DNA of 64,000 bases from Ignavibacteriota bacterium. GTDB taxonomy: Bacteria > Bacteroidota > Ignavibacteria > UBA10030 > UBA6906. Shown one piece after another: positions 16,032-57,554 of the stretch. Made by a program: the position numbers and the translations under genes. Location: positions 84,171 through 148,170 of the forward strand of contig CAVVIT010000004.1 of assembly GCA_963748405.1 (NCBI GenBank), read 5' to 3'. The first letter of the stretch is position 1, and every line of letters begins with the position of its first letter. The notes under the pieces are model-generated. The model was not told the origin of the DNA. It saw only the letters and a list, made by a program, of their open reading frames with translations, and made no database searches.

Positions 16032-16065
16032 CCGCCCCTGTCCCGCGCAGAAGGGAGAGGTCCTC

Positions 16066-17346
16066 GTGATCGACACGGCGCTCGCCCTCCGTGAAAAGGA
16101 GGGGAAACCGATCCGCGTCGCCATGGTCGGGGCGGGGTTTGCCGGCCGGATGATCGCGCTCCATCTCGTCGCCGTTCCCGGCATCCGGCTCGCCGCCGTG
16201 GTCAACAGGAACCCCGCGCACGCGGAGGAAGCGTTCCGCGACGCGGGGGTCGCGCGCGTGAGGACGGTGGAGCGGAGCGACGAGCTCGACGCCGCCGTCG
16301 GGCGCGGAGAGTGCGCCGTGACGACGGACCACCGCGCGGTATGCGGCGCGAAGACGATCGACGCCGTCATCGAGGTGACGGGGACCGTCGAGTACGGGGC
16401 CCGGGTCGTTCTTGACGCGGTCGCCGGGAGGAAACACGTCATCCTCGTGAACGCCGAGCTCGATGCGACGCTCGGGCCGGTCCTGAAGCGCTATGCGGAC
16501 AAATCGGGGGTGATCCTGACGGACACGGACGGCGACGAGCCGGGGGTCGCGATGACGCTCCTGCGTTATCTCCGCTCCATCGGGCTCCGCACGGTCGCCG
16601 CGGGGAACCTTAAGGGGCTCCTCGACAGGCGGAGGACGCCGGCGACGCAGAAGGAGTTCGCGGAAAAGACCGGGCAGGATCCAATGAAGGTCACGTCGTT
16701 TGCCGACGGGACGAAGCTCTCGATGGAGGCGGCGGTCCTGGCGAACGCGGCGGGGTTCGGCGTCGGGGTGCGGGGAATGTTCGGACCGCGCGCGCAGCAC
16801 GTGAACGAGATGGCACGCCTGCTCCCGGCGGAGGCCATGCTGGCGGGCGGGATCGTCGATTTTGCGCTGGGCGCCGAGCCCCATACCGGGGCGTTCGTCG
16901 TCGTCCACGAAAGCGGCGCCCTGAAGGTGGAGCGCCTGAAGTACTTCAAGATGGGGGACGGGCCGTTTTTCGTCTTCTATACGCCGTTCCACCTTCCGCA
17001 GGTCCAGGTCGCTTCGACCGTGGCGCGGGCCGTCCTGTTTGCGGACGCCACCGTGGCGCCCGCGGGGCCGCCCCGCTGTGAGGTGATCACGATGGCAAAA
17101 CGGGACCTCCGGGAGGGGACGCGCATCGACGGCCTCGGGGGATACGACATATACGGCACGATCGATAATGCCTCCGTCGCGGCGGCGGGACGGCTCCTGC
17201 CGGCCGGCGTCGCCGAAGGGTGCACGCTCAGGCGTGACGTGGCGCGGGATGAGCCGTTGACCTACGACGACATCGCGCTCCCGGCGGGGCGCCTCTGCGA
17301 CAGGCTGCGCGGCGAACAGGAAGTATTGTCTCACTCCTCTCTGTGA
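16066..17346 (+). CDS. NAD-binding oxidoreductase with C-terminal SAF-like domain (COG4091, predicted homoserine-dehydrogenase-like)
   Basis: IRVAMVGAGFAGRMIALHL Rossmann N-terminus. Overall architecture resembles the homoserine-dehydrogenase-like/SAF proteins found in sugar loci. GTG start. Confidence 0.55.
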   Translation: MIDTALALREKEGKPIRVAMVGAGFAGRMIALHLVAVPGIRLAAVVNRNPAHAEEAFRDAGVARVRTVERSDELDAAVGRGECAVTTDHRAVCGAKTIDAVIEVTGTVEYGARVVLDAVAGRKHVILVNAELDATLGPVLKRYADKSGVILTDTDGDEPGVAMTLLRYLRSIGLRTVAAGNLKGLLDRRRTPATQKEFAEKTGQDPMKVTSFADGTKLSMEAAVLANAAGFGVGVRGMFGPRAQHVNEMARLLPAEAMLAGGIVDFALGAEPHTGAFVVVHESGALKVERLKYFKMGDGPFFVFYTPFHLPQVQVASTVARAVLFADATVAPAGPPRCEVITMAKRDLREGTRIDGLGGYDIYGTIDNASVAAAGRLLPAGVAEGCTLRRDVARDEPLTYDDIALPAGRLCDRLRGEQEVLSHSSL

Positions 17347-17362
17347 ACGAAAGGGACTGGCG

Positions 17363-18160
17363 ATGAAAGTAGTGCTCTTCTGCGGCGGGCTCGGCACGCG
17401 CATGCGCGATTTCTCCGAGTCGATCCCCAAGCCGATGGTGACGATCGGGTACCGTCCGATCATCTGGCACGTCATGAAATACTACGCGCACTTCGGCCAC
17501 AAGGATTTCATCCTCTGCCTGGGATACAAAGCCGACGTGATCAAGAATTATTTCCTGAAATACGACGAATGCATCTCGAACGACTTCGTCCTCTCCAACG
17601 GCGGGGGACAGGTCGACCTCCTGGCGCGCGATATCAGCGACTGGAAGATCACGTTCGTCGACACGGGAGTCCATTCCAACATCGGGATGCGGCTCAAGGC
17701 GGTGGAGAAGCACCTCGAGGGAGAGAAGGCGTTTTTCGCGAACTACACCGACGGCCTGACCGACCTGAACCTCAACGATGAGTACGCGTTCTTCGAGAAG
17801 CACGACAAGATCGCCTGTTTCGCGGGAGTCCGGCCGACACAGTCGTTCCATCTGGTGAACACGGACGGCCCGCTCGTCACCGGCATCCAGCACGTCGTCG
17901 ACTCCGGCGTCCGGATCAACGGCGGATTCTTCATATTCAAGCACGACATTTTCAAATATATGCGCGAAGGGGAGGAGCTCGTCATCACCCCGTTCCACCG
18001 CCTGATCGCCGAGAAGCAGCTTCTCGCCTATCCGTACGACGGCTTCTGGGCGTGCATGGACACGTTCAAGGAGCGGCAGATGCTCGACGACATGTACTCA
18101 CGCGGCGAAACGCCCTGGGAAGTCTGGAAGGGGCACGGGAAACAATCATTACAGAAATAA
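17363..18160 (+). CDS. rfbF: glucose-1-phosphate cytidylyltransferase (CDP-glucose pyrophosphorylase)
   Basis: MKVVLFCGGLGTRMRDFSESIPKPMVTIGYRPIIWHVMKYYAHFGHKDFILCLGYKADVIKNYF aligns closely along its length with RfbF/DdhA (MKAVILAGGLGTRL...KPKPMVEIGGKPILWHIM...). Confidence 0.9.
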   Translation: MKVVLFCGGLGTRMRDFSESIPKPMVTIGYRPIIWHVMKYYAHFGHKDFILCLGYKADVIKNYFLKYDECISNDFVLSNGGGQVDLLARDISDWKITFVDTGVHSNIGMRLKAVEKHLEGEKAFFANYTDGLTDLNLNDEYAFFEKHDKIACFAGVRPTQSFHLVNTDGPLVTGIQHVVDSGVRINGGFFIFKHDIFKYMREGEELVITPFHRLIAEKQLLAYPYDGFWACMDTFKERQMLDDMYSRGETPWEVWKGHGKQSLQK

Positions 18161-18241
18161 TCACCGCAGGCGGCCCGTGTTGTTCTTCAGGCACGGGCTG
18201 CGTATATTGACCGCCGTCAACGCACACAGGGAAGGGTTTTG

Positions 18242-19366
18242 ATGAGTCAGGCTTCATTCGAACAGAGCCGTGATCGGATCAATGAATTCTGCGTCGCCCG
18301 CCTCCGGGAGGCGCTGAACCCCGCGACGGGGCTGTTTGACAGGCAGCTCCGCGACAGGAAATGGGACGCCACGCTCGGCACGGAGGACATGACGAGCACC
18401 GCCATCTGCCTCATCGGCATTCACCGCCGGGGCGATGCGAAGTCCGTCGGGCTCGATCCCGCCAGGACCTCCGAAGCGCTCTTCCAGGTCGCCCGGCGGA
18501 GGATGTACGCCGGGGGAACGGGGCTCGTGCTCTGGGCGAACGCTGTCTGGAACGGGATCCCGTATCCCGAAGCGATGCGCGCCATGGGTCTCGGCAGCGC
18601 TGATCCCACGGTGCTTCCCCGCAGCCTGACGACGATGGAGGTGGCCTGGCTCGTCAGCGGGCTGCTGCACGAGCTGAAACGCTCGAAGGATGCCGCCGCA
18701 CGCGCGGCGTTTGACGGAGCGCTCGCGGAGCTCAGGCGCAGGTACCGGCGCGAGGCGGCGCTCGTGGACCACTGTTCCTCCGCGGCGCCCGCGGGGGACC
18801 GGCTCCGGCTCTGGATCCCCAATTTTGCCGACCAGGTGTATTCGCTCCAGGCGTTCTCGTTCGCCGCGCGTGAAGGCATGGGCGCGGAGAACCTCGACAC
18901 CGCCGCCGCCATCGCCGGCCGTCTCGTCGCACTGCAGGGGGAATCCGGGCAGTGGTGGTGGCACTACGACACGAGGAGCGGGAGCGTGGCCCAGCCCTAC
19001 CCGGTCTACGCGGTCCACCAGCACGGGATGGCCCCGATGGCCCTCCGCGCGCTCGCCGCGGCCGGGGGACCCGTTCACGAGGAGCCGATTCGCCGGAGCA
19101 AGGCGTGGCTGACGGGGAACGAGCTCGGTGCGGAGCTCATCGATGAAGCCGCCGGGACCGTCTGGCGGGACATCGAACACGCCGGGGGGAGATTCTCCTC
19201 CCTCGTCCGCCAGGCCAGGTCCGTCCTCGGCATCCCGGAAGGGCACACGGCGGCAAAGACACAGCAGCTCCGGGTGAACTACGAAACCCGTCCCTACGAG
19301 TGGGCGTGGTGCCTGTACGCTGCCGCGATCGAATCGGGAAAGGCCGGCGCGGGTCATGTCGTCTGA
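18242..19366 (+). CDS. hypothetical protein (possible alpha/alpha-toroid repeat fold)
   Basis: Coherent 375-aa ORF in operon context. Weak QxxxGxW-like repeats (GESGQWWWHYD). No confident family assignment. Confidence 0.45.
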   Translation: MSQASFEQSRDRINEFCVARLREALNPATGLFDRQLRDRKWDATLGTEDMTSTAICLIGIHRRGDAKSVGLDPARTSEALFQVARRRMYAGGTGLVLWANAVWNGIPYPEAMRAMGLGSADPTVLPRSLTTMEVAWLVSGLLHELKRSKDAAARAAFDGALAELRRRYRREAALVDHCSSAAPAGDRLRLWIPNFADQVYSLQAFSFAAREGMGAENLDTAAAIAGRLVALQGESGQWWWHYDTRSGSVAQPYPVYAVHQHGMAPMALRALAAAGGPVHEEPIRRSKAWLTGNELGAELIDEAAGTVWRDIEHAGGRFSSLVRQARSVLGIPEGHTAAKTQQLRVNYETRPYEWAWCLYAAAIESGKAGAGHVV

Positions 19367-20138
19367 ACACGATCGCGTTACGCTTCTCGGGTGCCCACTT
19401 GACCTCGTCGATTTCGAAGAGGCCGCCTCCTGGTGCTTCGACGCCGCGCGCGCGAAGGGGAGCCCGGCGCAGCTCGTCACCGTCAACGCACAGAGCCTCC
19501 TGATGATGCGCGACGATCCGGCGATGGATCGTGCGATCAGGGAGGCGGCGATGGTCGTCGCGGACGGCGCGTCGATGGCCCTGGCGGCCCGGATCCTCCG
19601 GCTTCCCTGGAAAGGGCGCGTCACCGGCGTCGACCTGATGGCGCGTCTTCTGCGCGACGGGTCGTCGCGCGGACTGAAGGTGTATTTTCTCGGCGCCACG
19701 GACGTCGTGCTCGACCGGCTGCTGGCCGTCACGCGCGAGCGGCACCCGGGTCTCGTCGTGGCGGGGTACCGGAACGGGTATTTCGACAGGGAAAAAGACG
19801 GGGAAGTCATCGACGCTATCCGCGCTTCGGGCGCGGACGTGCTGTTCGTGGGGATGCCGACCCCCTTCAAGGAGGTCTGGCTCCACAGGAATCTTTCCCG
19901 GTTCGGCGCCGGGCTCGTCATCGGCGTGGGGGGGACGTTCGACGTTCTCGCCGGGCTCGTGCCCCGCGCGCCCGTCTGGATGCAGCGGGCGGGACTCGAA
20001 TGGTCCTGGCGTTTGATGATGGAACCCCGTAAACTCTGGAAACGGAATCTCGTGTACAATTCGCGGTTCGTGGCCCTTCTCCTGCGGGAGAGGATCCTGC
20101 ACGGGCGGGCGCGCGTCGAAACGGCGGTGGGCAGGTGA
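19356..20138 (+). CDS. WecB/TagA/CpsF family glycosyltransferase (GT26)
   Basis: LLGCPLDLVDFEEA...LVTVNAQSLLMM...VADGASMALAARIL...GVGGTFDVLAG are GT26 signatures. Confidence 0.8.
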   Translation: MSSEHDRVTLLGCPLDLVDFEEAASWCFDAARAKGSPAQLVTVNAQSLLMMRDDPAMDRAIREAAMVVADGASMALAARILRLPWKGRVTGVDLMARLLRDGSSRGLKVYFLGATDVVLDRLLAVTRERHPGLVVAGYRNGYFDREKDGEVIDAIRASGADVLFVGMPTPFKEVWLHRNLSRFGAGLVIGVGGTFDVLAGLVPRAPVWMQRAGLEWSWRLMMEPRKLWKRNLVYNSRFVALLLRERILHGRARVETAVGR

Positions 20139-20512
20139 AAAAAGTCCTGATTATCGATGACGATGAGATGCACCTCGTCCTTGTCCGGCAGATACTGGAC
20201 AGGGAGGAATGCACCGTCCTTTCGACCGCCGACGGACCCCACGGCATTACCCTGTACAGGGACCACCGCCCGGAACTCGTCCTCCTGGATCTCGGGCTGC
20301 CGAGCATGAACGGCATCGACGTCCTGAAAGAGATCCGGAAGATCGACAGGAACGCGAAAGTCATCGTCGTGACGGGGTATGCCTCGAGCGAGACGGCCAA
20401 CATCGCCGAGCGCAACGGGGCACTGGAGGTACTGCAGAAGCCGATCGAATTCAGAACGTTTCTCGAGAAGATCAGACGCGCGCTGAATCTGCCCGAGGCG
20501 CAGGATCAATAA
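20135..20512 (+). CDS. single-domain response regulator receiver (CheY-like)
   Basis: KVLIIDDDEM...LVLLDLGLPSMNGIDVLKEIRK...KVIVVTGYAS carries the conserved Asp pocket and Lys of REC domains. There is no output domain and no kinase nearby. GTG start overlaps the upstream stop. Confidence 0.8.
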   Translation: MKKVLIIDDDEMHLVLVRQILDREECTVLSTADGPHGITLYRDHRPELVLLDLGLPSMNGIDVLKEIRKIDRNAKVIVVTGYASSETANIAERNGALEVLQKPIEFRTFLEKIRRALNLPEAQDQ

Positions 20513-20566: not shown

Positions 20567-21889
20567 ATGGTATCGCATTCCGGAACGCCAGGTCAGGATT
20601 CGCCGCAGCTTCGGATCTCGGTGGTTTCCGCCGATGCCGACCTTGCCAGCCTGGAGGGGGAATGGAATGCCCTGTTCGCATCGGCGAACTCGTCCGTGTT
20701 CCAGTCGTACGAGTGGGCGGCGGCGTGGTGGAAGCACTTCCGGAACGGCCGCGAGCTCTACTGCCTCTGCTTCCGGTCCGGGGAGCGCCTCGTGGGGCTC
20801 GCGCCTCTCTGCCGGAGGACCGTCACGTTCCTCGGCATCCCGCTCTTCCGTCTCCTGGAATTCCTCGGACGGCCGCACGCCGACTATCTCGACATCATCG
20901 TCCTTCCGGGGTTCGGCGTTCCCGTCGTCGAAGCTTTCGTCGCCCATATCGCCTCCGGGGAGGCACACATCGACCTCCTCGACCTCGAAGAGATCCCCCC
21001 CTGGTCGCTTCTGAAAGAGCACATCGCGGCGCCGGCCGCGGCCTCCGGGATGAAGGCCGTCGTCGACAGGGGCCCGGCCTGCCCGTATATCCCCCTCCCC
21101 GGGACGTTCGATGAATTCCTCGCCGCGCTCGGCCCCAACACGCGGTACAACTACAGGCGCAAGTGGACGCGCCTGAGGGGGGGACACGCCGTCACCGAGC
21201 GCCTCGTGCGGGGAAGCGGCGAAGACGTGCCGGCCGCCCTCCGTTCGTTCATGAAGATCCACGGGGACCGGTGGAAGGGACTCGGATTTCCGAGCGCGTT
21301 CGACAATCCCATCGAGAGAGGTTTCTTCGAGGACATGACGCGCGGATTCGCCCGGAGGGACTGGCTCCGCATATTTCTCCTGGAGGTGGACGGCGTCGAC
21401 GTGGCGGCCAGCCTGGAATTTCTGTACCGGGGGCGCGCCTACATGTACCACTGCAACGCCACGGGCCCCGACGACGTGATGCGCTGCAGCCCGGGCCTTC
21501 TCGTGAAGATCTTCGCCATCCGCTCCGACATAGGGGAGGAGATGCGCGAGTACGACATGCTCAGGGGGGAGGAGAGCTACAAGTACGAGCACCTGAAAGC
21601 TCTCGAGCGGTTCAACAGCACGCTCCGGATGCCCGCGCTCCTTCCCGGGAGCAGCCTCCGGTTCCGCGTGTTCCTCCTCTGGCTTCTCGCCAGAAAATCG
21701 TTCGGCCGCACGAAGCTCGAGTATTATCAATGGCGCCGGTTCACGATTACGAAGAACCCGGGGGGGAAGGAGAAACTGGACTACCTCTTCCGCAGGATCG
21801 CCGAGGTCGGGCACATGGCGCTGCACTTCATCCGCGTCTATTTTGCCGGGGCCCCGCCCGCCGGCGAAAGCCCCGATGCTCACGATTGA
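20567..21889 (+). CDS. FemAB/CelD-like GNAT acyltransferase family protein (paralog 1)
   Basis: VFQSYEWAAAWWKHF..., the LDLEEIP middle region and YMYHCNATGPD resemble BioF2/CelD/FemAB-like (PEP-CTERM-associated FemAB-type) proteins. Unlike paralogs 2-4 it lacks the SELTRSDQ tail. Confidence 0.7.
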   Translation: MVSHSGTPGQDSPQLRISVVSADADLASLEGEWNALFASANSSVFQSYEWAAAWWKHFRNGRELYCLCFRSGERLVGLAPLCRRTVTFLGIPLFRLLEFLGRPHADYLDIIVLPGFGVPVVEAFVAHIASGEAHIDLLDLEEIPPWSLLKEHIAAPAAASGMKAVVDRGPACPYIPLPGTFDEFLAALGPNTRYNYRRKWTRLRGGHAVTERLVRGSGEDVPAALRSFMKIHGDRWKGLGFPSAFDNPIERGFFEDMTRGFARRDWLRIFLLEVDGVDVAASLEFLYRGRAYMYHCNATGPDDVMRCSPGLLVKIFAIRSDIGEEMREYDMLRGEESYKYEHLKALERFNSTLRMPALLPGSSLRFRVFLLWLLARKSFGRTKLEYYQWRRFTITKNPGGKEKLDYLFRRIAEVGHMALHFIRVYFAGAPPAGESPDAHD

Positions 21890-23066
21890 ACCGGTGACCA
21901 CAGACCGGGAGTTCTCCGCGCTGGCTCCCGACTGGAACTCCGTCCTCGCCGCTTCCGGCCGGCGGTCTCTCTACCTGACGCACGAATGGCTCGACGCCTG
22001 GTGGCGCACGCACGGGGCCCCGGGGAGCGAGCTGTGCATACTCGTCGTCCGGGACGAACAGGGGATCGCCGCGCTGGCGCCGCTCGTCCGTGTGACCCGC
22101 CGGTACCTCGGCGTCCCGGTGCGGATGATCGAATTCCTCTCGATGTCGATGTATGCCGACCATCCCGCTGCGGTGACAGGAACGCTTGACTGGATCATCC
22201 GGAGGGATCCCCTCCCGGTGATCGGCGCGCTCATCGACCACCTCCTCCGCGGGAGAGACACCTGGCAGGCCCTCCGGCTCCATCCCGTCCCTTCCGACTC
22301 GCCGTACCTGCCGCTCCTGGTCGGCGAGGCGGCGCGCCGCGATTGCACCGTCGACCGGCGGCACGTGCTCGATAACGCGGTGATCGACTGCGGCCAGGGG
22401 TGGGACCGGTTCTTCGGCGGCCTCACCGGGGACTTCCGCCGTACGCTCAGGCGGAGGGGTGAGAACCTGGCGAAGATTGGAGCGGTCGCCTTCAGCAGGA
22501 TCGACGCACTGGAGACCGCCGGTATGTTCCGCCGGCTGCTCGACGTCGAGCGGCGGAGCTGGAAGTGGGAGAGGGGGGTGAGTCTCAATTCCGCCGCGTA
22601 CGGCGATTTCTTCCCGGAGTTCGCGCGCACGGCGGCCGGGCGCGGGTGGCTTCGCACGTGGGTTCTCTCGCTCGGGGAGGAGGACATCGCCTACGAGCTC
22701 TGCGTAACATTCCAGGGCGAGCTTCACTGCCTGAAAAAGAGCTACGATGCGCGCTACAGCACTGCATTTCCGGGGGGGCTTCTCGAGCGCCGCATTTACG
22801 AGGATGCGTTCCGGGACGGGATCATCCGCATTCACACGCTCTGGGGAGATGAAGCTCACAAGCTCCGCTGGCACTCGGCGCTCGAGCCCCACGAAGAACT
22901 CCTCCTCTTCCACGATGCTCCCGCCTCCCGGAGCGCGCGAGCGTTCCTGCTCGGCGCAAAAGCCCCGCGCTTACACAGAGAGGTGGCCGAAGCGGGCAAA
23001 CGCGCTCTCCGGCGGGCCGGTCTTCACCCGCGGTGTTCCGAACTGACGCGAACGGACCAGCTGTGA
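21876..23066 (+). CDS. FemAB/CelD-like GNAT acyltransferase family protein (paralog 2)
   Basis: LYLTHEWLDAWWRTHG..., ERRSWKWERG, and the C-terminal ...PRCSELTRTDQL tail. Start chosen at MLTIEP, overlapping the paralog-1 stop by 14 nt. Confidence 0.7.
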   Translation: MLTIEPVTTDREFSALAPDWNSVLAASGRRSLYLTHEWLDAWWRTHGAPGSELCILVVRDEQGIAALAPLVRVTRRYLGVPVRMIEFLSMSMYADHPAAVTGTLDWIIRRDPLPVIGALIDHLLRGRDTWQALRLHPVPSDSPYLPLLVGEAARRDCTVDRRHVLDNAVIDCGQGWDRFFGGLTGDFRRTLRRRGENLAKIGAVAFSRIDALETAGMFRRLLDVERRSWKWERGVSLNSAAYGDFFPEFARTAAGRGWLRTWVLSLGEEDIAYELCVTFQGELHCLKKSYDARYSTAFPGGLLERRIYEDAFRDGIIRIHTLWGDEAHKLRWHSALEPHEELLLFHDAPASRSARAFLLGAKAPRLHREVAEAGKRALRRAGLHPRCSELTRTDQL

Positions 23067-24292
23067 GCGCCGCCGGTGCACACGGTACGGACGCACCGCC
23101 GCTCACCGTGACGGAGTATGGAACGGCGGACGGGTTCGCGCAACTCGAGGGTGTATGGAACGGGCTCCTTCGCTCCTCTCCCGCCCCTTCGCTCTACATG
23201 TCGTTCGAGTGGCTGCGGGCGTGGTGGGAGTGCTTCGGCGGCGGAAAGAGACGGCTCAGAATCCTCGGCGTGTCGGCGGGTGAGCGGACGATCGCGATCG
23301 CGCCGTTCATGGAGGTGCGGAGGCGGTTTCTCGGGATGCCCTACAGGACGATCGAGTTCATCTCGTCGCGCGATTACGCATTCTCGCACCTGACGATGTC
23401 GGGCATACTCGACGTCATTGCCCCCCCTGACGCCGAAGAAGCGGTCGACGCGGTCCTGCGTCACCTGCTCTCCGCCGGGGAGGACTGGGCGTTCATGAGG
23501 CTGGAGCCTCTTGCCGGTGAAGGGGTCGTCCGGCGCGTCCTCGAGGCGCGGGCGGCGGCCTTCGGGCTTCATGTGAAGGAGGGAGATACATTCGAGGCGT
23601 ACGAGGCGGAACTCGGTCCGGGGTGGGAAGCCCGCCGGATGGGGCCGGAGTCGCACCGCCGGGATCCGTCAGGGGCATTGAATGAGAAGCTCAGAAAGCA
23701 GGGGGAGATCACGTGGGAGGACACAGACGGGAGCGGCGGCCCGGAATTGCTGTTCGGGACGCTCCTCGACATCGAGCGGAGAAGCTGGAAGTGGAACCGC
23801 GGCCTGAGCATCAACGCGCTCGGCTACGGGGGGTTTTATCCCCTCTTCCTGCAATCCGCCGCCGGGAACCGCACGCTGAGGGTCACGCTCCTGAACATCG
23901 ACGGGCGCCCCGTGGCATATGTCTTCAGCGCACTGTTCGGCGGAACGCTGGAGGCGCTGAAGACCGCATATGACGGCTCGTTCGCCCGGAGTTCGCCCGG
24001 ACGTGCGGCTCTCTGGCACCACGTGCAGCAGGCCGCCGCCGAAGGGATCTCTCGCGTGAACCTGCACATCGGATCGAAGGAGTATAAATCCGAGTGGGCC
24101 ACCGGCTCCCGGATGTACACCGAGCTTTTCCTCCTTCGAACGTCAGCGCGGGGAAAGATCATCGGATTCCTTCTCTTCACGCTCGGTCTGTACGGCAGGT
24201 TTCGATTCATCCCGGATCTCACAAAGCGGGTCCTGCGGCGGCTCGGGTTCACGCCCCGCTGGTCGGAGCTCACGCGCTCAGATCAGGTCTGA
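23033..24292 (+). CDS. FemAB/CelD-like GNAT acyltransferase family protein (paralog 3)
   Basis: LYMSFEWLRAWWECFG, ERRSWKWNRG, and the C-terminal ...PRWSELTRSDQV tail. An alternative GTG start at 23063 overlaps the paralog-2 stop (GTGA). Confidence 0.7.
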   Translation: MFRTDANGPAVSAAGAHGTDAPPLTVTEYGTADGFAQLEGVWNGLLRSSPAPSLYMSFEWLRAWWECFGGGKRRLRILGVSAGERTIAIAPFMEVRRRFLGMPYRTIEFISSRDYAFSHLTMSGILDVIAPPDAEEAVDAVLRHLLSAGEDWAFMRLEPLAGEGVVRRVLEARAAAFGLHVKEGDTFEAYEAELGPGWEARRMGPESHRRDPSGALNEKLRKQGEITWEDTDGSGGPELLFGTLLDIERRSWKWNRGLSINALGYGGFYPLFLQSAAGNRTLRVTLLNIDGRPVAYVFSALFGGTLEALKTAYDGSFARSSPGRAALWHHVQQAAAEGISRVNLHIGSKEYKSEWATGSRMYTELFLLRTSARGKIIGFLLFTLGLYGRFRFIPDLTKRVLRRLGFTPRWSELTRSDQV

Positions 24293-24293
24293 C

Positions 24294-25412
24294 ATGCCAA
24301 GAGTCTCGGTGGTTCTTCCGACATACAACAGGGCGTCGACGCTCGCCCGGGCGGTGGGGAGCGTCCTTGCACAATCGTGGTCCGATTTTGAGCTGATCGT
24401 CGTCGACGACGGCTCGACGGACGGCTCGGTCGACGGGATCGCGGAGCTGGACCGCCGCATTTGCGTCCTCCGCAGGGAGAACGGCGGAGTGTCCGCCGCG
24501 CGGAACAGCGGACTCTCCCGGGCCTCCGGCGATCTCATCGCGTTCATCGATTCGGATGACGAGTGGCGCCCGTTCTACCTCCGGCTGGCGTGCGCTTTTT
24601 TTGACGCATTCCCGGCCGAGGATCTCTTCAGTACCGAGATACTCGTCCGGCTTCCCGGCGGGGAGGAGACGATTTTTCCCCGCGAGGAGGTTGCCCGGTG
24701 GTACCCCCGTCTCGCCTCCCGCGTGGGATCGCGCCTGCTCGATCTCCCTGCGGGAGAACGGGACCCGTACAGGAGGCTCTTCGGCCGGAAGATGAGCGCG
24801 GACTGGTCGAAGGGGATCGGACCGGAACCCGGCGTTGCAGGCGCAAGCCACTACCGGGGTGCCGTGTACCCGCATTTGCGCTGGGGATACATTGCCGGTC
24901 TCCAGGCGATGGTCATGACGAAGAGGGCGTCGCTTGCGGCCGGCGTCTTCGACACGAATCTCAGGACGGCCGAGGATTTCGCGTACATCGGGCGCCTCCT
25001 GAGAGCGTTTCCGCTGAACCTGGTCTCGTGCCAGGGTTGCATCAAACACGAGGAGGAGACCGAGGAGCACCTGGCAACGGGAAAACACGCTCTGGAATTC
25101 AGGGAAAACCTCTACGGCCAGTTTAAGCACATGATAGGTTCGGTCGCTCCCGAAAGAAGCGATCAGCGCATTCTTCTCGGGTTCAAGGCCTTCGACGTGG
25201 CTGTGGCTGCTCTTGACGCGGGGGACCGACTGAAGGCCCTCCGGTATCTCGATACGGCCTGCGCTTCGATAGGCGGGTTCCGGCGCGGGGCCATCCTCCG
25301 GTTCATTCTCCGCACGGTCCGTTCTACGCGCCTGACCCGGTTTTTCTACCGGCTGATGAATGGGATCGAGCACAGGCTCCGTTCCCGCGTTCCATCGGGC
25401 GGGGGTGCGTGA
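24294..25412 (+). CDS. glycosyltransferase family 2
   Basis: VSVVLPTYNRASTL...LIVVDDGSTDGS...IAFIDSDDEW is the canonical GT2 DxD architecture. It sits between FemAB-like paralogs 3 and 4. Confidence 0.8.
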   Translation: MPRVSVVLPTYNRASTLARAVGSVLAQSWSDFELIVVDDGSTDGSVDGIAELDRRICVLRRENGGVSAARNSGLSRASGDLIAFIDSDDEWRPFYLRLACAFFDAFPAEDLFSTEILVRLPGGEETIFPREEVARWYPRLASRVGSRLLDLPAGERDPYRRLFGRKMSADWSKGIGPEPGVAGASHYRGAVYPHLRWGYIAGLQAMVMTKRASLAAGVFDTNLRTAEDFAYIGRLLRAFPLNLVSCQGCIKHEEETEEHLATGKHALEFRENLYGQFKHMIGSVAPERSDQRILLGFKAFDVAVAALDAGDRLKALRYLDTACASIGGFRRGAILRFILRTVRSTRLTRFFYRLMNGIEHRLRSRVPSGGGA

Positions 25413-25414
25413 CG

Positions 25415-26605
25415 ATGTATGAGGTGCGCGAACATACGGCGTTCGAGGAGATGCTCCCGATTGCCGGCGAGTGGACCCGGCTGGCGCTCGCGCCGGGGGG
25501 GCCGGGGATATTCGGGACGTTTGAGTGGGCTGCAACCTGGTGGAAATGCCACGCCGGGGAAGGTCGGAGTCTCATGGTTCTCTCCGCCTGGCTTGACGGG
25601 AAGATCGCGTGCATCGCTCCTCTTATGACAGGGAGATCGTGGTTCGGACCGTTTCCCGTCTTGACGGTGGAATTCATCTCGACGTGGAAGTTCGCGGGGT
25701 CTGCCGCCAGCGTCCTCGGATCGATGGACTTCGTCGCAGACCCGGCTCACAGGGGGGAAGCCATTGATGCGACGCTTCTTTATATTGAAGAGAAGGAGTG
25801 GGATCTCCTCCGGCTTCACCCGATTCCCGAAGATTCAACGGCAATACCCGCGCTGAAACGCTGGGGCTCCTCCGGAGGGAGATCGGTCGTCGTGCAGCAC
25901 GTGTTCGACAACGCCGTCCTCCGGTCGGGGGGCGGAGATGAAGGTTTCCGGTCGCACCTCTCTTCGAAGTTCAAGGCCAGGCTCCGCCAGGCCGGGGACA
26001 AGCTCGGACGGCGCGGCGCGGTGGACTTCGTCGAATACACGTCTCCGGGGGATGTCCCCCGGTCGTTCGAGCGAATCACCGCCATCGAACGGGGAAGCTG
26101 GAAATGGGAGAAGGGGATCGCCATTAGCTCTGCGGCCTACCGGGAGTTCTTTCCCGCGATCGCGCTTTCGGCTGCCGGCAGGGGCTGGCTGAAGCTGGGG
26201 TTCCTCCGGCTGGATGGGAGGGAGATCGCGTATTCTGTTATGGTGGTCACGGGGGAGACCGCCACGTTCCTCAAGACGGGATACGATGACGCGCACGACG
26301 ACTGCTCTCCCGGGAGCCTGCTGATGGACTGGACATTCGCCCGACTCGCGCGCGAAGGTGTGCGCCGGATCGACATGTTTTCCGGCGACTGGGGATACAA
26401 GCAGCGCTGGCAGGCGGTGCCGGAACCTCACTGCGAGGTGCAGGTCTTCAGAGGCAGTGCGTATGCCCGGTTCCTCCGATTCATGTACTGGAATCTTGGA
26501 TTGTACGGCAAAGCGAGAACGCCGGTCCTCCTGTTCAAGCGCGTTCTGAGGAAATGCGGCATCCCCTGGAGGCATTCTGAGCTCACACGGTCCGATCAAC
26601 TCTGA
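25415..26605 (+). CDS. FemAB/CelD-like GNAT acyltransferase family protein (paralog 4)
   Basis: IFGTFEWAATWWKCHAG, ERGSWKWEKG, and the C-terminal ...WRHSELTRSDQL tail. ATG at 25415; an alternative GTG at 25409 overlaps the GT2 stop. Confidence 0.7.
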   Translation: MYEVREHTAFEEMLPIAGEWTRLALAPGGPGIFGTFEWAATWWKCHAGEGRSLMVLSAWLDGKIACIAPLMTGRSWFGPFPVLTVEFISTWKFAGSAASVLGSMDFVADPAHRGEAIDATLLYIEEKEWDLLRLHPIPEDSTAIPALKRWGSSGGRSVVVQHVFDNAVLRSGGGDEGFRSHLSSKFKARLRQAGDKLGRRGAVDFVEYTSPGDVPRSFERITAIERGSWKWEKGIAISSAAYREFFPAIALSAAGRGWLKLGFLRLDGREIAYSVMVVTGETATFLKTGYDDAHDDCSPGSLLMDWTFARLAREGVRRIDMFSGDWGYKQRWQAVPEPHCEVQVFRGSAYARFLRFMYWNLGLYGKARTPVLLFKRVLRKCGIPWRHSELTRSDQL

Positions 26606-26617: not shown

Positions 26618-27817
26618 ATGATGGAATTCATCGAGGTGACCGAGGCAGTCTTCCTTCTTTTTCTGGGGATCAGTCTCGTGTATCTCGCCACACTGACCGT
26701 CCTGGCCCTGATCATGCGCGGCCGTTCCGTCCCCCCGGCCGCACGTGAACGCCGGTTCGCCGTCGTCGTCCCGGCCCACAACGAAGAGGCGGGAATCGCC
26801 GCGACGCTCGCCTCCCTCGCTTCGGTCGACTATCCCGCCGGGCTGCGGGAGATCATCGTGATTGCGGACAACTGCACCGACCGGACGGCCGCAATCGCGC
26901 GCTCCTCCGGTGCGACCGTCCTGGAGAGAAACGATGCGGAGCATCGGGGGAAGGGGTTCGCGCTCCGCTGGTGCTTCGACCGTCTTGTGGCCGCGGAGAG
27001 GCCGTACGACGCTGTCGTCGTCATCGACGCGGACACCGAAGCGCCGAAGAATCTCCTGCGCGCGATGAACGACCGGCTCGCTCTCGGCGCAGAGGTCCTG
27101 CAGTGCAATGACATGGTCAAGCCGCTTCCCGGCGCGTGGAGTTCCGAGATGACGCGTCTCGGCTTCACGCTGTACAACTATGTGCGCCCCCTGGGGCGGA
27201 CGGCGTTCGGGGGCTCGGCGGGACTCAAGGGGAACGGCATGTGTTTCACGACCCGTATTCTCCGGGACCACCCGTGGAGGGCCTACTCGCGCGCCGAGGA
27301 TCTCGAGTACGGACTCCAGCTTCTTGTCGAAGGGGTCCCCGTCGGGTTCGCCCCCGAAGCGACGATACTGGCGACGATGCCGGGCGAGGCTGCGAACGCC
27401 GAAAGCCAGCGCGCACGATGGGAGGGGGGGAGGCTTCCGCTGATCAGGACGTACTGGCGGCCTCTCCTTGCGCGATTCCTCCGGAGCGGATCGCTCGTTC
27501 CGCTGGACGCACTCCTCGAGCTGTGTTCGCCCGCGCTCGTAAACATGCTCGCCCTCTCGCTTCTGCTGGCGGCGTTGAACTTCGTCCTTCTCCTGACGGG
27601 AGTCGGGCACGCCGCGTATTTCTTTGCAGGCTGGACGCTTCTTGTGTGCCTTGGGCTGGTGCACCTGTTTCTCGGTATTCTCGTTGCACGGGACTCAGGC
27701 CTCCTCCGGGTTCTTGTCCACCTGCCCCGATTTATCGTCTGGAAAGGCTTCCTTTACGTAAAGCTTCTCTTCAGGAAGAAGAAGACCACGGAATGGGTCA
27801 GAACGACACGGGAATGA
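26618..27817 (+). CDS. membrane glycosyltransferase family 2 (synthase-type, TM-flanked GT-A domain)
   Basis: N-terminal TM, then FAVVVPAHNEE...IIVIADNCTD...VVIDADT (DxD) and a Q-x2-RW-like ESQRARWEGG, followed by 3-4 C-terminal TM helices. Confidence 0.75.
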   Translation: MMEFIEVTEAVFLLFLGISLVYLATLTVLALIMRGRSVPPAARERRFAVVVPAHNEEAGIAATLASLASVDYPAGLREIIVIADNCTDRTAAIARSSGATVLERNDAEHRGKGFALRWCFDRLVAAERPYDAVVVIDADTEAPKNLLRAMNDRLALGAEVLQCNDMVKPLPGAWSSEMTRLGFTLYNYVRPLGRTAFGGSAGLKGNGMCFTTRILRDHPWRAYSRAEDLEYGLQLLVEGVPVGFAPEATILATMPGEAANAESQRARWEGGRLPLIRTYWRPLLARFLRSGSLVPLDALLELCSPALVNMLALSLLLAALNFVLLLTGVGHAAYFFAGWTLLVCLGLVHLFLGILVARDSGLLRVLVHLPRFIVWKGFLYVKLLFRKKKTTEWVRTTRE

Positions 27818-28062
27818 GGATTCAGGGCCGGGCAATGCATAGAGATCGGTGAAAAATTCTCAAAAATTGCGATTCTGTGATGGGAATCATAAATTGACAT
27901 CGCATAAACGCTACATTGCGTACGAACCGTTTCTCTCGTTTCACTCCCCCCCCGGACCATCCCGCCCCCAGGCAGGATGAACGCGGCTTTATGTTTCCGG
28001 CTTTGAGATTGTCCCCGCTTCACCGAACGAAGTTGCACTGCCATCCACACAATGAGGAACAT

Positions 28063-30624
28063 ATGAACACATTGTCTCGATATACGTTACTGTTGGGTCT
28101 GCTCCTTGTCCTGGGAGTGTCGCTTTCCCTGGCACAGCCTACGATTTCGGGTCTCAGTGCACAGAGCGGAAAGGCGGGCACATCGTTCACGATCACGGGT
28201 ACAAACTTTGACGGCTCCGCGTCGAACGATGTGGTGCGGATCGGCGGGGTGAAAGCAGCTGTGACCGGTGCGACCGCGACGTCGCTGACGGTCACCGTAC
28301 CGACGAATGCAGTTTCGGGAATTGTCACTGTCACCGTCACGCCTCTTCACCTGACGGCATACTGGTCGCTTCCCTTCAGCGTGACGTATGTGTTCCCCGG
28401 CCCGATTGACACGGCTTCGTTTGCACCCTCCGTTGGATTTGCGGCGGGGACAGCGGCGAGCATCGCGTTCGCCGGCGATTTCGACGGTGACGGCAAAACC
28501 GATATCGGGGTCGTCAACAACGGTGACAACACGATCTCCTTGTATCTGAACACGAGTTCGGTGGGATCGATAACCTCGGCTTCGTTCGGTTCACAGTTTG
28601 TGCTGACGACGGGGCAGCATCCCTGGGGTGTTGCCGTCGCGGATATCGACGGCGACGGGAAACTCGATATCGTCGTCTGCAACGGCTTGGACAGCACCAT
28701 CTCGGTATTCAGGAACACGAGTTCGCCCGGTTCGTTCAGTTTCGATCCGAAGGTGGATTTCAAGACCGGCTACGGTCCGCACGACATCGTCGTCGCCGAT
28801 TTCAATCTCGACGGCCGGCCGGACGTCGTCGTCTCCGACTACGCAGGCGGGACCTCCGGCCTGGGGACGATCTCGGTCCTCCGCAACGTTTCCACGGGAT
28901 CCACGATCGCCTTCACGAAGCACATCGACATACCGGTTGGTGACGGCCCGAGAGGGATCGCCGCCGCGGACATGGACGGTGACGGTTACCTTGACCTTGC
29001 AGTCGCTAATTTCGACGGCGGCTCGATTTCGCTGTTCCAGAACCAGTCAAAATCCACCCCGGATTCGATCGCGTTTATTATCCAGCACACGGAAAATGGA
29101 TTCCTTTCTCCGGACGCGGTGGCGTTCACCGACGTTGACGGCGACGGCGTTCCGGACGTGATTGCCGGCGGAGCCGGTGACGGACTCTGGCTGTATCGCG
29201 GTGATGCAACCTGGTCGTTCGAAAGCGCCGTGCTCTACCACAAAGGGAGCGGGCAGGGGAACGTGCTGGGTATCGATATGAACGGGGACGGGAAGCCTGA
29301 CGTCGTGACCGGGAACGCGCTGGAATCTCCTGTCCGCGTCGGGACCGTTTCGATCCTCCAGAATGCGACCGTGGGGATCGGAACGTTCTCGTCGGCATCA
29401 CTGCGCGATTCGGTGAATTACCTCGTGCCGAGCCTCAACTACGGCGTCGCCGTGGCGGATGTCGACGGTGACGGACGGCCCGATCTCATCAGTGCCAATT
29501 ACTACACGAAGCAGGTCGGCGTCCTCAGGAGCCGGCTCAGCGACGCGCACACGATCACGCCGACGGTGACCGGGCCGGGCGCGATTTCTCCGCCGGCAAC
29601 GTTCACCATCTACCACGGACATGATACGACGTTCACGATCACCGCAAACGGCGGATCGCACGTCGACAGCGTGGTTGTGGACGGCGTGAACCAGTATGTC
29701 CTCCCGACCTACACGTTCACGAACGTGACGTCGAATCATACGATCAAGGCGTACTTCTCGTCGGGAGCGGTCTTTGCCATCACCTCGAGTGCGGGAGCCA
29801 ACGGCACAATTTCGCCGAATGGCACGGTCAATGTTCCCTCGGGAGGCACGCAGGCGTACACGATCACGCCGAACTCCGGGTACGGCATTGCGACGGTGCT
29901 TGTCGACGGGTCGCCCGTCGCCAATACCGCAAAGTATACATTTACCAACGTGCTGCTGTCGCACACGATCAGCGCGACGTTCTCTGTGGGCGTAAACATC
30001 CCGCTGAAGGTCTTTCTGCAGGGTCCGGCTGCAGCGTCGCCGGACACAATGTTGCCGACGCTCAGGACATCGGGCACTCTTGCTGCTCATTTTACATCGG
30101 TCCCGATTCCCTCGAATGCAATCGACAGCATCAATGTGGAGCTCAGGAACGCCCAGACGACTGCCGGATCGACAACAAGGAAGTTCCAGCCGGCGTGGCT
30201 CCTTTCCAACGGCACGATCACGAGCTTCACCGATACGACAAAGAACTACGTCCGGTTTGACACAAGCGCCGGTTCGTACTATATTGTCGTGCGGCACCGG
30301 AACCACCTTGCGGTCATGAGCGCGGCCGCGATCGCGCTGACGTCGACGGACACCCTCGCCTACGACTTCACGACGGGACAGGCAAAGGCATTCGGGACAA
30401 ACCCGATGGCACAGGTGGGGACGAAGTTTTGCATGATCGCTGGCGACGCGAATGCGGATGGTCAGATTACAACTCTTGATTTTAGTCCTTGGCTGGCAAA
30501 CGCAAAGGCAGCTCTTACCGGTTACTATAGCACCGATATGAATTGCGACGGACAGAATACTACGCTGGATTTCACGCTGTGGCTGGCAAATGCAAAGAGC
30601 GCTCCGACGAGTCAGGTTCCGTGA
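28063..30624 (+). CDS. secreted IPT/TIG + 7x FG-GAP beta-propeller + Ig-like repeat protein with C-terminal dockerin-like domain
   Basis: Signal peptide MNTLSRYTLLLGLLLVLGVSLSLA. IPT-like PTISGLSAQSGKAGTSFTITGTNFDG. Seven D-x-D/N-G-D-G-x-x-D FG-GAP repeats (FDGDGKTDIGVV ... VDGDGRPDLISAN). Two Ig-like repeats ending YTFTNV..HTI.A.F. C-terminal DANADGQITTLDFSPWLANAK / DMNCDGQNTTLDFTLWLANAK are two dockerin type-I Ca-binding segments. GAGGAA RBS. Confidence 0.75.
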   Translation: MNTLSRYTLLLGLLLVLGVSLSLAQPTISGLSAQSGKAGTSFTITGTNFDGSASNDVVRIGGVKAAVTGATATSLTVTVPTNAVSGIVTVTVTPLHLTAYWSLPFSVTYVFPGPIDTASFAPSVGFAAGTAASIAFAGDFDGDGKTDIGVVNNGDNTISLYLNTSSVGSITSASFGSQFVLTTGQHPWGVAVADIDGDGKLDIVVCNGLDSTISVFRNTSSPGSFSFDPKVDFKTGYGPHDIVVADFNLDGRPDVVVSDYAGGTSGLGTISVLRNVSTGSTIAFTKHIDIPVGDGPRGIAAADMDGDGYLDLAVANFDGGSISLFQNQSKSTPDSIAFIIQHTENGFLSPDAVAFTDVDGDGVPDVIAGGAGDGLWLYRGDATWSFESAVLYHKGSGQGNVLGIDMNGDGKPDVVTGNALESPVRVGTVSILQNATVGIGTFSSASLRDSVNYLVPSLNYGVAVADVDGDGRPDLISANYYTKQVGVLRSRLSDAHTITPTVTGPGAISPPATFTIYHGHDTTFTITANGGSHVDSVVVDGVNQYVLPTYTFTNVTSNHTIKAYFSSGAVFAITSSAGANGTISPNGTVNVPSGGTQAYTITPNSGYGIATVLVDGSPVANTAKYTFTNVLLSHTISATFSVGVNIPLKVFLQGPAAASPDTMLPTLRTSGTLAAHFTSVPIPSNAIDSINVELRNAQTTAGSTTRKFQPAWLLSNGTITSFTDTTKNYVRFDTSAGSYYIVVRHRNHLAVMSAAAIALTSTDTLAYDFTTGQAKAFGTNPMAQVGTKFCMIAGDANADGQITTLDFSPWLANAKAALTGYYSTDMNCDGQNTTLDFTLWLANAKSAPTSQVP

Positions 30625-30656
30625 TTGACAAATAACCACAGAGTGAGGAGTATATC

Positions 30657-31826
30657 ATGAAAAACTTTCTATTCACGATAGCAGTTATTGTCCTGAGCAT
30701 CTCGATGGCGACAGCTCAGACCTCTATTCAACAGCAACTCGTGGTATCTCAAAACGGTGCCCAAAATGGTCAACCGTTCAAGGTTGACATTCAGCTCAAG
30801 GGATCAACTCTAACCGGGGCAAACACCATAAACTCACTCACGATCGACGTGAAGTACGAAACTGCCAAACTGAGCTTTCCGACAGTGGCAGGATCGATTA
30901 TCGCGGCGACCGCGTGGAATGCAGGCATCAATGCCCTTGCCTACACCCGGACACCAAGTAACCCCGGCACAGGGTTCGTCCGACTGCTTCTCACAGGAAA
31001 CAACGTCAACGGAAATGCTGATGGTACGCCCGCTGGTTTTGATGTTACGACCTCATATCAGACTATTGCGACGCTGACCTTCACAATTCTTGACCAAACG
31101 CAGTTGGCGACCCTGTCCATTGATGGATCTTCCAATGCGTTTGCTTTTTTCTCGACAGAGAATAACGGCGACAACTCGAACGGATTTGTGAGCATTTCCG
31201 GTGCGAATCTGACTGCGACGGGGATCAATAATCAGCCCCTCCCCATCCAGCTCGCAACATTCCAGCCGACGTCCGTGTCGTCGAAGTCGGTGACGCTCTC
31301 CTGGGCGACGCTGAGCGAAACGAACAACTACGGATTCGAAGTGCAGCGCTCTGCCGCGAAGACGACAGGGTTCGCGACGATCCCCGGGAGCTTCACGAAG
31401 GGGAACGGGACGACGACCGCACGCCACACGTATTCGTACACGGATGCGGCACCGACGACATCCCAGCCGTACTACCGGCTCCGCCAGATCGACCTGAACA
31501 ACGCGGACCATTACAGTGACGTGCTTGACGTCACGGGCGTTGCGATTGCGCCTGTGATCCCGACGGAGTTTGCGATGCGTCAGAACTATCCGAACCCGTT
31601 CAACCCGACGACGATCGTGGAGTTCGACCTTCCGAAAGATTCTCACGTGACGCTCGAGCTCTACAACATACTCGGACAGAGAGTCATGGAGATACTCAAC
31701 GAGGTCCGTCTCGCGGGAACACAGCGGGTCCAGGTGGATGCCTCACGGCTCGCGAGTGGTGTATATCTCTACAGGCTTGCGGCTGGGGATAAGGTGTTCA
31801 TGAAAAAGATGACACTGATCAAGTAG
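30657..31826 (+). CDS. secreted cohesin-like domain + FN3-like protein with T9SS C-terminal sorting domain
   Basis: Signal peptide MKNFLFTIAVIVLSISMATAQ. FKVDIQLKGSTLTGANTINSLTIDVKYETAKLSFPTVAGSII resembles cohesin beta-sandwich strands. FN3-like SVTLSWATLSETNNYGFEVQR. The C-terminus NYPNPFNPTTIVEFDLPKDSHVTLELYNILGQRV...SGVYLYRL...KKMTLIK is a T9SS (Por) sorting-domain signature. Confidence 0.7.
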   Translation: MKNFLFTIAVIVLSISMATAQTSIQQQLVVSQNGAQNGQPFKVDIQLKGSTLTGANTINSLTIDVKYETAKLSFPTVAGSIIAATAWNAGINALAYTRTPSNPGTGFVRLLLTGNNVNGNADGTPAGFDVTTSYQTIATLTFTILDQTQLATLSIDGSSNAFAFFSTENNGDNSNGFVSISGANLTATGINNQPLPIQLATFQPTSVSSKSVTLSWATLSETNNYGFEVQRSAAKTTGFATIPGSFTKGNGTTTARHTYSYTDAAPTTSQPYYRLRQIDLNNADHYSDVLDVTGVAIAPVIPTEFAMRQNYPNPFNPTTIVEFDLPKDSHVTLELYNILGQRVMEILNEVRLAGTQRVQVDASRLASGVYLYRLAAGDKVFMKKMTLIK

Positions 31827-31889: not shown

Positions 31890-32256
31890 GATCGGATGTC
31901 CAAACTTTTTGTATGGCAAAAAACTGCGAGCCGTGTGACTCGACTCACCCGCGCGCCGTTTTCAAGGCAATTCGTTCCAAATGTATTGACATTCTCGCTC
32001 TGCACTAGTAAGTTGACTGGCACAATGATGTTCGCTGAGAGAGTTCATCCGGTGCTTTCAAGATCCATCATCCGCAGACACACTTCAGCCGCACAACGAA
32101 CAAACGTCATCTGATCAAGCGTCCGGTATTTTCCCATCGGACGTGTCATCCGCGAATCGTTGAACTTATTCGCGAGTCCGCCGTTGAGGTCCGGGGGGGC
32201 CAAATGAAACTCTGCACTCGTGCTTGGTTTCACGGTCGACAGCAAGGGGAGTTCCA

Positions 32257-38702: not shown

Positions 38703-38706
38703 AGAC

Positions 38707-49145: not shown

Positions 49146-49174
49146 GCGCACCACATTTTTACAGGAGAGGCCTT

Positions 49175-56760: not shown

Positions 56761-56793
56761 CGAGGGGGGCTCAGATGAGCCCCCCGGCTTTTG

Positions 56794-56867
56794 TGCGCCT
56801 GGAGGGATTTGAACCCCCAACCCTCAGATCCGAAGTCTGATGCTCTATCCAGTTGAGCTACAGGCGC
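56794..56867 (-). tRNA. tRNA-Arg (anticodon TCG)
   Basis: The reverse complement GCGCCTGTAGCTCAACTGGATAGAGCATCAGACTTCGGATCTGAGGGTTGGGGGTTCAAATCCCTCCAGGCGCA folds as a cloverleaf: acceptor 7 bp, D-stem GCTC/GAGC, anticodon stem TCAGA/TCTGA with loop CTTCGGA (U33, anticodon TCG, purine at position 37), T-loop TTCAAAT. No encoded CCA. Confidence 0.85.
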
Positions 56868-57068
56868 TGCATATTCGAGCTGTTTTAGCCGATTCCTGGC
56901 CGGAAGAACCTCTCCGTGGACAGGTTTACGTCCAATACTTGTTACAATTTGGTAACAATTGGTATTAGGCCTTGCCGGCTTGGATTGGCTTATGCGACAA
57001 TAAGGTAACAAGTGTTGACCGGGAATTCAAGGAGGAAAGAATCAGGCACGGTCACGTATATGATAGAG

Positions 57069-57528: not shown

Positions 57529-57554
57529 AGGGGTTACTTGGGCTTTTATTGTTT

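Follow-up and report, generated by a model that had tools for sequence, protein, structure and literature searches.

The window analysed here is a stretch of 64,000 nucleotides from an Ignavibacteriota bacterium (assembly GCA_963748405.1, contig CAVVIT010000004.1, positions 84,171 to 148,170 of the forward strand). At 20567-26605 it contains four consecutive genes for tandem-GNAT proteins of family PF13480, par1 to par4, with a GT2-family glycosyltransferase gene inserted between the third and the fourth. Three of the proteins, par2, par3 and par4, end in almost the same peptide, of the shared form SELTR(S/T)DQ(L/V), which is conserved in their orthologs. With a probability of roughly 0.55, the four proteins are soluble, peripheral FemX-like PF13480 transferases that decorate a polysaccharide, and the tail of par2-4 is a shared handle for a partner or a control mechanism.

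The SELTRxDQ tail and its distribution

The C-termini read PRCSELTRTDQL in par2, PRWSELTRSDQV in par3 and WRHSELTRSDQL in par4, and a six-frame scan of the 64-kb window for SE[LY][ST]RxDQ finds these three sites only. A first-pass annotation, made from the DNA sequence by itself, had described near-identical tails on par2-4 and their absence from par1, which is confirmed. The corresponding DNA reads TCC GAA CTG ACG CGA, TCG GAG CTC ACG CGC and TCT GAG CTC ACA CGG. As the codons differ synonymously between the copies, the tail is conserved at the protein level, and gene conversion or a DNA or RNA signal is ruled out as its explanation by the same differences.

The tail is kept over considerable evolutionary distances. 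Orthologs of par2 with 51-73% identity (P0022-P0030) have SELTR[MSA]DQ, orthologs of par3 with approximately 50-71% identity (L002, L003, L012, P0064) have SELTR[EM]DQ, and those of par4 retain the tail down to 37% identity (P0010, SELSRMDQV); a tail not conserved in orthologs from related genomes would have spoken against the first-pass view. In an alignment of 15 tail-bearing sequences, with identities of 31-73%, the final 22 positions include nine that never vary (K, R, R, G, S, E, R, D, Q), and the C-terminal module is among the most conserved stretches of the protein, beside ERxSWKW. The segment in front of the tail had been described as basic and amphipathic. It is basic in par2-4, with seven Lys and Arg residues in the last 30, and amphipathic in par2 and par3, with a helical hydrophobic moment of 0.6-0.8, but in par4 the windows of highest moment are located further upstream.

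Distant PF13480 homologs stop at or just after a basic helix that is aligned to KRxLR[KR]. The helix is therefore family-wide, and G-x5-SELTRxDQ is a clade-specific addition. In the AlphaFold2 models of par3 and par4 the basic helix has a predicted local distance difference test score (pLDDT) of ∼65-74 and the tail one of 42-63. On these models the tail is predicted to lie outside the FemX-like core, flexible and not confidently packed on it. The low pLDDT and the end points of the distant homologs both agree with the earlier view that the tail is not part of the catalytic fold.

A profile of the 40-residue tail was searched against 1.84 billion representative proteins and gave 21 clusters at E≤1e-3. 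All real matches cover C-terminal parts of proteins in this GNAT subfamily (P0065 is a spurious repeat protein), which rules out that the tail is a portable motif occurring on other families. Judged from these sequence searches, SELTRxDQ is rare and confined to one small subclade of PF13480. A scan of genome contigs yielded only three distant loci, all without the tail, and a 34%-identical homolog from Planctomycetota also lacks it. The motif strings were not found in the searchable literature; the tail-bearing subclade, the motif and the cassette of response regulator, four GNAT proteins and GT2 appear to be undescribed.

In a neighbour-joining tree the tail-bearing proteins are monophyletic and fall into par2-, par3- and par4-type subclades, each with orthologs from other loci. 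The duplications are therefore older than the splits between the lineages, and the tail has a single origin. A different PF13480 clade contains par1 with its orthologs, together with Acidobacteria-type sequences; the par1-type proteins have a conserved C-terminal module of ∼75 residues of their own (EYYxWRRFxITKxP...), which is kept in P0032-34, L003, L005, L018 and L019. Of the "four paralogs" first proposed, par2-4 thus form one tail-bearing clade, but par1 represents another PF13480 lineage that never had the tail. P0038 (409 residues), branching beside the tail-bearing clade, ends in RALRRPGGRRGGTEVKVAD, which, going by the sequence, could represent the G-x5-SELTRxDQ module in a degenerate or an ancestral state. 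Another PF13480 protein, of 401 residues (L018, 14518-15723), is 28-30% identical to par2, par3 and par4 alike and ends in an Arg/Tyr-rich helix with no SELTRxDQ, an apparent secondary loss of the tail to judge by its sequence.

The order response regulator, par1, par2, par3, GT2, par4 is kept in the metagenomic loci L002 (70-95% identity), L003/L013 and L012 (49-73%) and partly in L004, L005, L010 and L011; overall, the cassette is kept at 50-80% identity even in loci with different flanking genes. The response regulator lies immediately upstream of par1 in L002, L003/L013, L012 and L005, and the GT2 between par3 and par4 is present in L002, L003, L004, L010 and L013. An EpsU-like integral-membrane GT2, encoded downstream of par4 in the window, goes with the GNAT genes and the response regulator in most related loci (L002, L005 and L018-L020), and in L005 and L018-L020 it adjoins the response regulator. 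In every locus with enough flanking sequence a par1-type GNAT and a receiver domain are encoded alongside the tail-bearing proteins. The Ignavibacteriales- and Chlorobi-labelled loci L018-L020 have a single tail-bearing gene, followed directly by one of the par1 type. The same cluster includes a deacetylase beside another PF13480 gene, an ATP-grasp-like gene, a spermine-synthase-like gene, an AMP-binding enzyme, the response regulator and the EpsU-like GT2.

Several relatives are fusion proteins. In P0089 (859 residues) an ATP-grasp domain labelled "D-aspartate ligase" is fused to a tail-bearing GNAT; in P0075 (653 residues) a tail-bearing GNAT is followed by a spermine-synthase-like domain; and in L020 (11302-13416) such a domain is fused to a par1-type GNAT. 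Such fusions are a hint that the wider system may involve the chemistry of amino acids or polyamines.

Family and fold of the four proteins

All four proteins match PF13480 (Acetyltransf_6) with 71-82 bits (E 1e-19 to 7e-23), well above the gathering score of 22 bits, and share 27-34% pairwise identity. The profile hidden Markov model check proposed with the first-pass annotation thus supports the family assignment for PF13480. It fails for the second model proposed, TIGR03019, which none of the four matches in NCBIfam at E≤0.01. No PEP-CTERM or exosortase genes were seen in the window, and the sorting domain that does occur there is of the type IX secretion system (T9SS) type, not PEP-CTERM. 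Matches of the four proteins to PF02388 (FemAB) and PF04339 are likewise absent at E≤0.01, and no transmembrane segment or signal peptide was found in par1-4. The predicted mid-motif ERRSWKW is present in par2 and par3, but reads ERGSWKW in par4 and is degenerate in par1 (HGDRWK-GLG). Searches of the PDB sequences, with single sequences as well as with a profile, gave nothing significant; the weak matches are an alignment of GNAT motifs with RimI (E 0.009) and Sba18.

AlphaFold2 models, built on the homolog alignment, have a pLDDT of 90.5 and a predicted template modelling score (pTM) of 0.88 for par4, and of 85.7 and 0.86 for par3. Structural comparison ranks FemX from S. aureus first (PDB entry 6snr, score 23.7), followed by Weissella FemX and FemA (both 21.6), Sbb17 (19.7), 2hqy, which has no annotated function, and L-PGS (both 18.9), and three MprF entries (17.4-18.3); the best tandem GNAT of the acyl-CoA type, 2wpw, scores 13.5. 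Foldseek agrees with this FemX-led ranking. The modelled fold is a FemABX-type tandem GNAT with FemX and FemA as its nearest relatives, and the ranking, as a similarity of predicted folds only, leans towards aminoacyl-tRNA-dependent enzymes.

The fold is shared with FemX, FemA and FemB and with FemX(Wv) (PDB entries 6snr, 4ii9 and 1lrz), which are the aminoacyl-tRNA transferases of peptidoglycan branches. Unlike these enzymes, to which they are 8-15% identical, the four proteins do not match PF02388, the model has no coiled-coil tRNA arm, and the genes are located in a Wzx/Wzy cluster and not among cell-wall synthesis genes. With the "CelD/BcsL" or BioF2-like acetyltransferases they share bona fide membership of PF13480, and CelD/BcsL is also the JGI label on the homologs, but no cellulose synthase is seen in the window and only a very small subclade has the SELTRxDQ module. 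An assignment as CelD/BcsL in the functional sense was rejected, as no BcsA-type synthase was found and the other genes are of the Wzx/Wzy type. Membership of BspF (NF047385) was also rejected, with 21-48 bits against a cutoff of 775. To the C-terminal domain of MprF/aaPGS (DUF2156) and to the tRNA-dependent peptide synthases Sba18 and Sbb17 there is no relationship at the sequence level; these enzymes have acceptors of their own, phosphatidylglycerol and streptothrisamine, and MprF is fused to a flippase.

Possible roles of the proteins and of the tail

Judged by its published description, the closest functional precedent is HfsK from Caulobacter. HfsK is a tandem GNAT as well, with FemX as closest solved relative and with several ∼30%-identical paralogs. 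It is linked to exopolysaccharide (holdfast) genes with a deacetylase alongside (HfsH in Caulobacter, PF01522 in the window), and it is soluble but membrane-associated, with a short Arg-containing C-terminal extension beyond the FemX core. The par proteins continue for ∼45 residues past the FemX-aligned core, including the basic helix, and so have a comparable extension in structural terms. They also have a comparable setting, with Wzx, Wzy and a deacetylase in the window and a deacetylase beside a GNAT gene in L018-L020. Localisation of HfsK and its binding of c-di-GMP depend on the last 25 residues and on RR352, membrane association and activity require the C-terminal extension, and the truncated protein is inactive even when it is tethered artificially to the membrane (PMC5362036). 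The two systems differ in that the HfsK paralogs are dispersed in the genome, whereas those described here form a tandem cassette, in that no SELTRxDQ has been reported on the HfsK extension, and in that HfsK is regulated by c-di-GMP, whereas the conserved neighbour here is a phospho-receiver.

In the role that we propose, the target of par1-4 would be the lipid-linked repeat unit of a Wzx/Wzy-type cluster, whose sugar amines they would modify with acyl or aminoacyl groups on the cytoplasmic side of the membrane. Following the HfsH/HfsK logic of Caulobacter, these amines could be exposed by the PF01522 deacetylase of the window, a candidate source of free sugar amines for the GNAT proteins; it is 47% identical to the L018 deacetylase directly upstream of a PF13480 gene. 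Each protein may be specific for its own position or donor, as are FemX, FemA and FemB in peptidoglycan. par2-4 would descend from one ancestor that acquired the C-terminal module, and the par1 lineage would have its own. The first part of the module, the basic amphipathic helix KRxLR[KR]xG that is family-wide, would be positioned like the required extension of HfsK, while the second part, the clade-specific and presumably flexible SELTRxDQ outside the fold, would let all three enzymes meet at one partner or assembly site, or be subject to one control mechanism. The par1-type GNAT, the single-domain response regulator and the membrane GT2, the genes of which are seen to travel with the motif, are the candidates for such a partner. 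The docking motif and the sequential substituents of the first-pass annotation are plausible in this light. Family, fold, conservation, distribution and synteny are shown by the analysis; substrate, donor, action at the membrane, docking and tail partner are all parts of the scheme that we infer.

A number of observations weigh against this proposal. A low AlphaFold2 confidence is not proof of disorder, and the tail might fold onto the core or the substrate. The tree on which the history of the copies is based carries no support values. The deacetylase is located 18 kb from the GNAT genes, and in L003 the EpsU-like GT2 is not adjacent. Finally, the donor, aminoacyl-tRNA or acyl-CoA, is not readable from the sequence: the weak profile alignment places the SPG motif of the family on the acetyl-CoA loop of RimI, and BspF and HfsK, characterised members of PF13480, are acyltransferases of the acyl-CoA type by their descriptions.

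In an unlikely alternative, the tail serves as an element of the active site or as a lid for substrate binding, which lacks order in the apo monomer and closes over the donor (the acceptor end of a tRNA, or CoA) or over the pyrophosphate of the acceptor. The tail is as strongly conserved as the motifs of the catalytic core, its invariant K, R, S, E and D would suit contacts with phosphate or Mg2+, and the inactivity of truncated HfsK in spite of its membrane tether would also be consistent with such a function. However, most PF13480 proteins, including par1 and the Planctomycetota homolog, work without the tail, the 401-residue clade member in L018 lacks it, and long extensions or whole domains can come after the motif.

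Distinctly unlikely is a nucleotide second-messenger switch, in which the Arg/Lys-rich helix and the E, R, D and Q residues of the motif would bind c-di-GMP or a related ligand and thereby toggle membrane association and activity. The precedent of the C-terminal residues of HfsK suggests such a mechanism, and the module, which is predicted to be mobile, contains many Arg residues and has R, D, E and Q at invariant positions. Yet the cassette was not seen to contain a diguanylate cyclase, PilZ or any other c-di-GMP gene, its conserved regulator is a phospho-receiver, and none of the known binding motifs (RxxD, RxxxR...DxSxxG) is matched.

We consider it still less probable that the tail is specifically a docking peptide for the response regulator of the cassette, the phosphorylation of which would switch the three enzymes together, in the manner of phosphorylated CheY with the FliM and CheZ peptides. 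One motif is common to three enzymes, and a receiver with all phospho-acceptor residues is present in every tail locus with enough flank (the window, L002, L003/L013, L012, L005 and L018-L020), but this support consists of co-occurrence, and the regulator could equally control the membrane GT2, its neighbour in L005 and L018-L020.

A secretion signal, a sorting signal, as suggested in the first-pass annotation, or a nucleotide-level feature (gene conversion, a translational-coupling signal or an RNA element) is effectively refuted: the position at the extreme C-terminus in the window, the overlapping or abutting neighbour genes and the T9SS substrate encoded nearby would fit, but the proteins have a cytoplasmic enzyme fold and no signal peptide or transmembrane segment, the tail is unlike the ∼75-residue T9SS C-terminal domain, codons differ between the copies and across orthologs, the downstream junctions differ, and in many homologs the motif is internal, being followed by 1-253 further residues (in P0075 by the whole spermine-synthase-like domain), so that a free C-terminus is not needed.

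If the handle proposed for par2-4 is real, it offers a way to find the controlling partner or signal, and it would extend the single experimental precedent, HfsK. PF13480 or FemAB-like genes are common in exopolysaccharide loci, and the substrate is known for almost none of them; four enzymes with a GT2 and a receiver constitute a compact, testable unit for what such enzymes add to polysaccharides. A more speculative version, to which we attach little credence, is a Fem system for a polysaccharide. Here a de-N-acetylated sugar of the lipid-linked repeat unit would receive a short peptide branch, assembled one residue at a time from aminoacyl-tRNAs by the par1-type protein and the three tail-bearing proteins, and the tail would dock one partner, either the phosphorylated response regulator or the C-terminal module of par1, that gates all three steps. 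The ATP-grasp and spermine-synthase-like fusions in relatives would be in keeping with a family that adds amino acids or polyamines. A literature search found nothing on tRNA-dependent decoration of polysaccharides, and the cassette would allow a test of tRNA-dependent aminoacylation outside peptidoglycan and lipids. If the proteins carry out ordinary N-acylation and the tail is a lineage-specific tether, the result is a refinement of the annotation of Bacteroidota- or Ignavibacteria-type polysaccharide loci.

Gene organisation and surroundings of the cassette

The coordinates of the cassette and of its surroundings are listed in Table 1. The four open reading frames (ORFs), with the GT2 between the third and the fourth, occur in the ORF list as first described. 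The ATG start of par2 at 21876 is supported by its orthologs, which begin with MLxIE. For par3 an alternative GTG start at 23033 would give 419 residues, and the gene call of the contig takes 23063; for par4 the alternative is GTG 25409. Of the gene overlaps reported earlier, those of par1/par2 (14 nucleotides) and par2/par3 (4 or 34 nucleotides) are present, but par3 and the GT2 are separated by a gap of 1 nucleotide, and the 4-nucleotide overlap of the GT2 with par4 holds only if par4 starts at GTG 25409. The junctions 3′ of the three tail genes are dissimilar, with a 4-nucleotide overlap, a 1-nucleotide gap and a 12-nucleotide gap. The GT2 between par3 and par4 is soluble, with no transmembrane window.

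Table 1. Features of the cassette and of the surrounding polysaccharide region (window coordinates).
Feature	Position	Strand	Length	Remarks
Wzy	103-1659	+		
Polysaccharide deacetylase	1669-2448	+		PF01522, E 7e-30
GT4s				in the co-directional polysaccharide region, listed between deacetylase and Wzx
Wzx	8033-9538	+		
GT2, epimerases, 445-aa ORF	13375-14712 (445-aa ORF)			listed after Wzx
C-methyltransferase/DRL/NTP-transferase set	14790-18160			
WecG/TagA/CpsF-family glycosyltransferase	19356..20138	+		PF03808, E 1e-55
Stand-alone receiver-domain response regulator	20135..20512	+	125 aa	PF00072, E 9e-26
par1	20567-21889	+	440 aa	PF13480 tandem GNAT, E 1.2e-20; no SELTRxDQ tail
par2	21876-23066	+	396 aa	ATG start; tail-bearing PF13480 tandem GNAT, E 2.9e-20
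par2 C-terminal module KRALRRAGLHPRCSELTRTDQL	22998..23063	+		basic helix, then SELTRxDQ
par3	23063-24292	+	409 aa	GTG start at 23063; tail-bearing PF13480 tandem GNAT, E 1.2e-19
par3 C-terminal module KRVLRRLGFTPRWSELTRSDQV	24224..24289	+		residues 401-409 with pLDDT < 50
GT2 glycosyltransferase between par3 and par4	24294-25412	+	372 aa	PF00535, E 1.7e-32
par4	25415-26605	+	396 aa	ATG start; tail-bearing PF13480 tandem GNAT
par4 C-terminal module KRVLRKCGIPWRHSELTRSDQL	26537..26602	+		pLDDT falling across the last 26 residues (74, 63, 49)
EpsU-like integral-membrane GT2	26618..27817	+	399 aa	PF13641, PF13632; N- and C-terminal transmembrane segments
Both Wzy/Wzx pairs, Wza-, Wzz- and WecA-like proteins, PHPT protein	103-1659, 8033-9538, 38539-40155, 40155-41690, 35789-37372, 37446-38702, 32224-34224, 43862-45256			

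The response regulator has the canonical residues D9/D10, D52, T80 and K102, as read from its translation. The EpsU-like GT2 matches NF041865 (EpsU) with E 8e-87, below the cutoff of that model, and CelA with E 0.008. A scan of 17-32.5 kb for promoters and terminators gave counts equal to the shuffled expectation. A cluster look-up provided no names for the window proteins, and PADLOC, which covers anti-phage defence, had no matches for the GNAT proteins.

The window constitutes a long co-directional polysaccharide region. The polysaccharide context assumed at first is borne out by Wzy, Wzx, GT4s, a WecG-family glycosyltransferase, sugar-nucleotide enzymes and the PF01522 deacetylase. Upstream of the cassette, the set at 14790-18160 comprises a sugar C-methyltransferase (PF08421/PF08484), a DRL_cat oxidoreductase and a nucleotidyltransferase; the same trio is found in L002 and suggests a nucleoside-diphosphate-linked C-methyl branched sugar in the polymer. 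A 375-residue ORF at 18239-19366, between the nucleotidyltransferase and the WecG-family glycosyltransferase, has no Pfam or NCBIfam match; it is kept in L002 with 80% identity and absent from L003.

Over its whole length the window contains two Wzy/Wzx pairs, a Wza-like SLBB protein, a Wzz-like protein, a WecA-like initiating transferase of the GT4 family and a PHPT (Bac_transf) protein, an arrangement resembling a pair of back-to-back polysaccharide assembly sets that share one strand. Between the two sets, at 27916-31826, a 902-residue FG-GAP/TIG protein and a 389-residue protein with a T9SS C-terminal sorting domain are encoded. Together with the names of the homologs, this sorting domain suggests a Bacteroidota-like metagenome-assembled genome of the FCB group. 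In its C-terminal part the FG-GAP protein shares 35% identity with a 692-residue protein after the response regulator in L018 (17393-19471), and a large secreted protein therefore belongs to the conserved neighbourhood. Further downstream, a 661-residue ORF (47160-49145) with GT2, CoA_binding_3 and partial Bac_transf domains overlaps an AccA-like carboxyltransferase ORF (48815-50125) by ∼330 nucleotides, with uncertain starts and domain boundaries. Across the last 8 kb (56001-64000) the G+C content falls from ∼0.60-0.66 to 0.48-0.54, which may mark a boundary with DNA of different origin.

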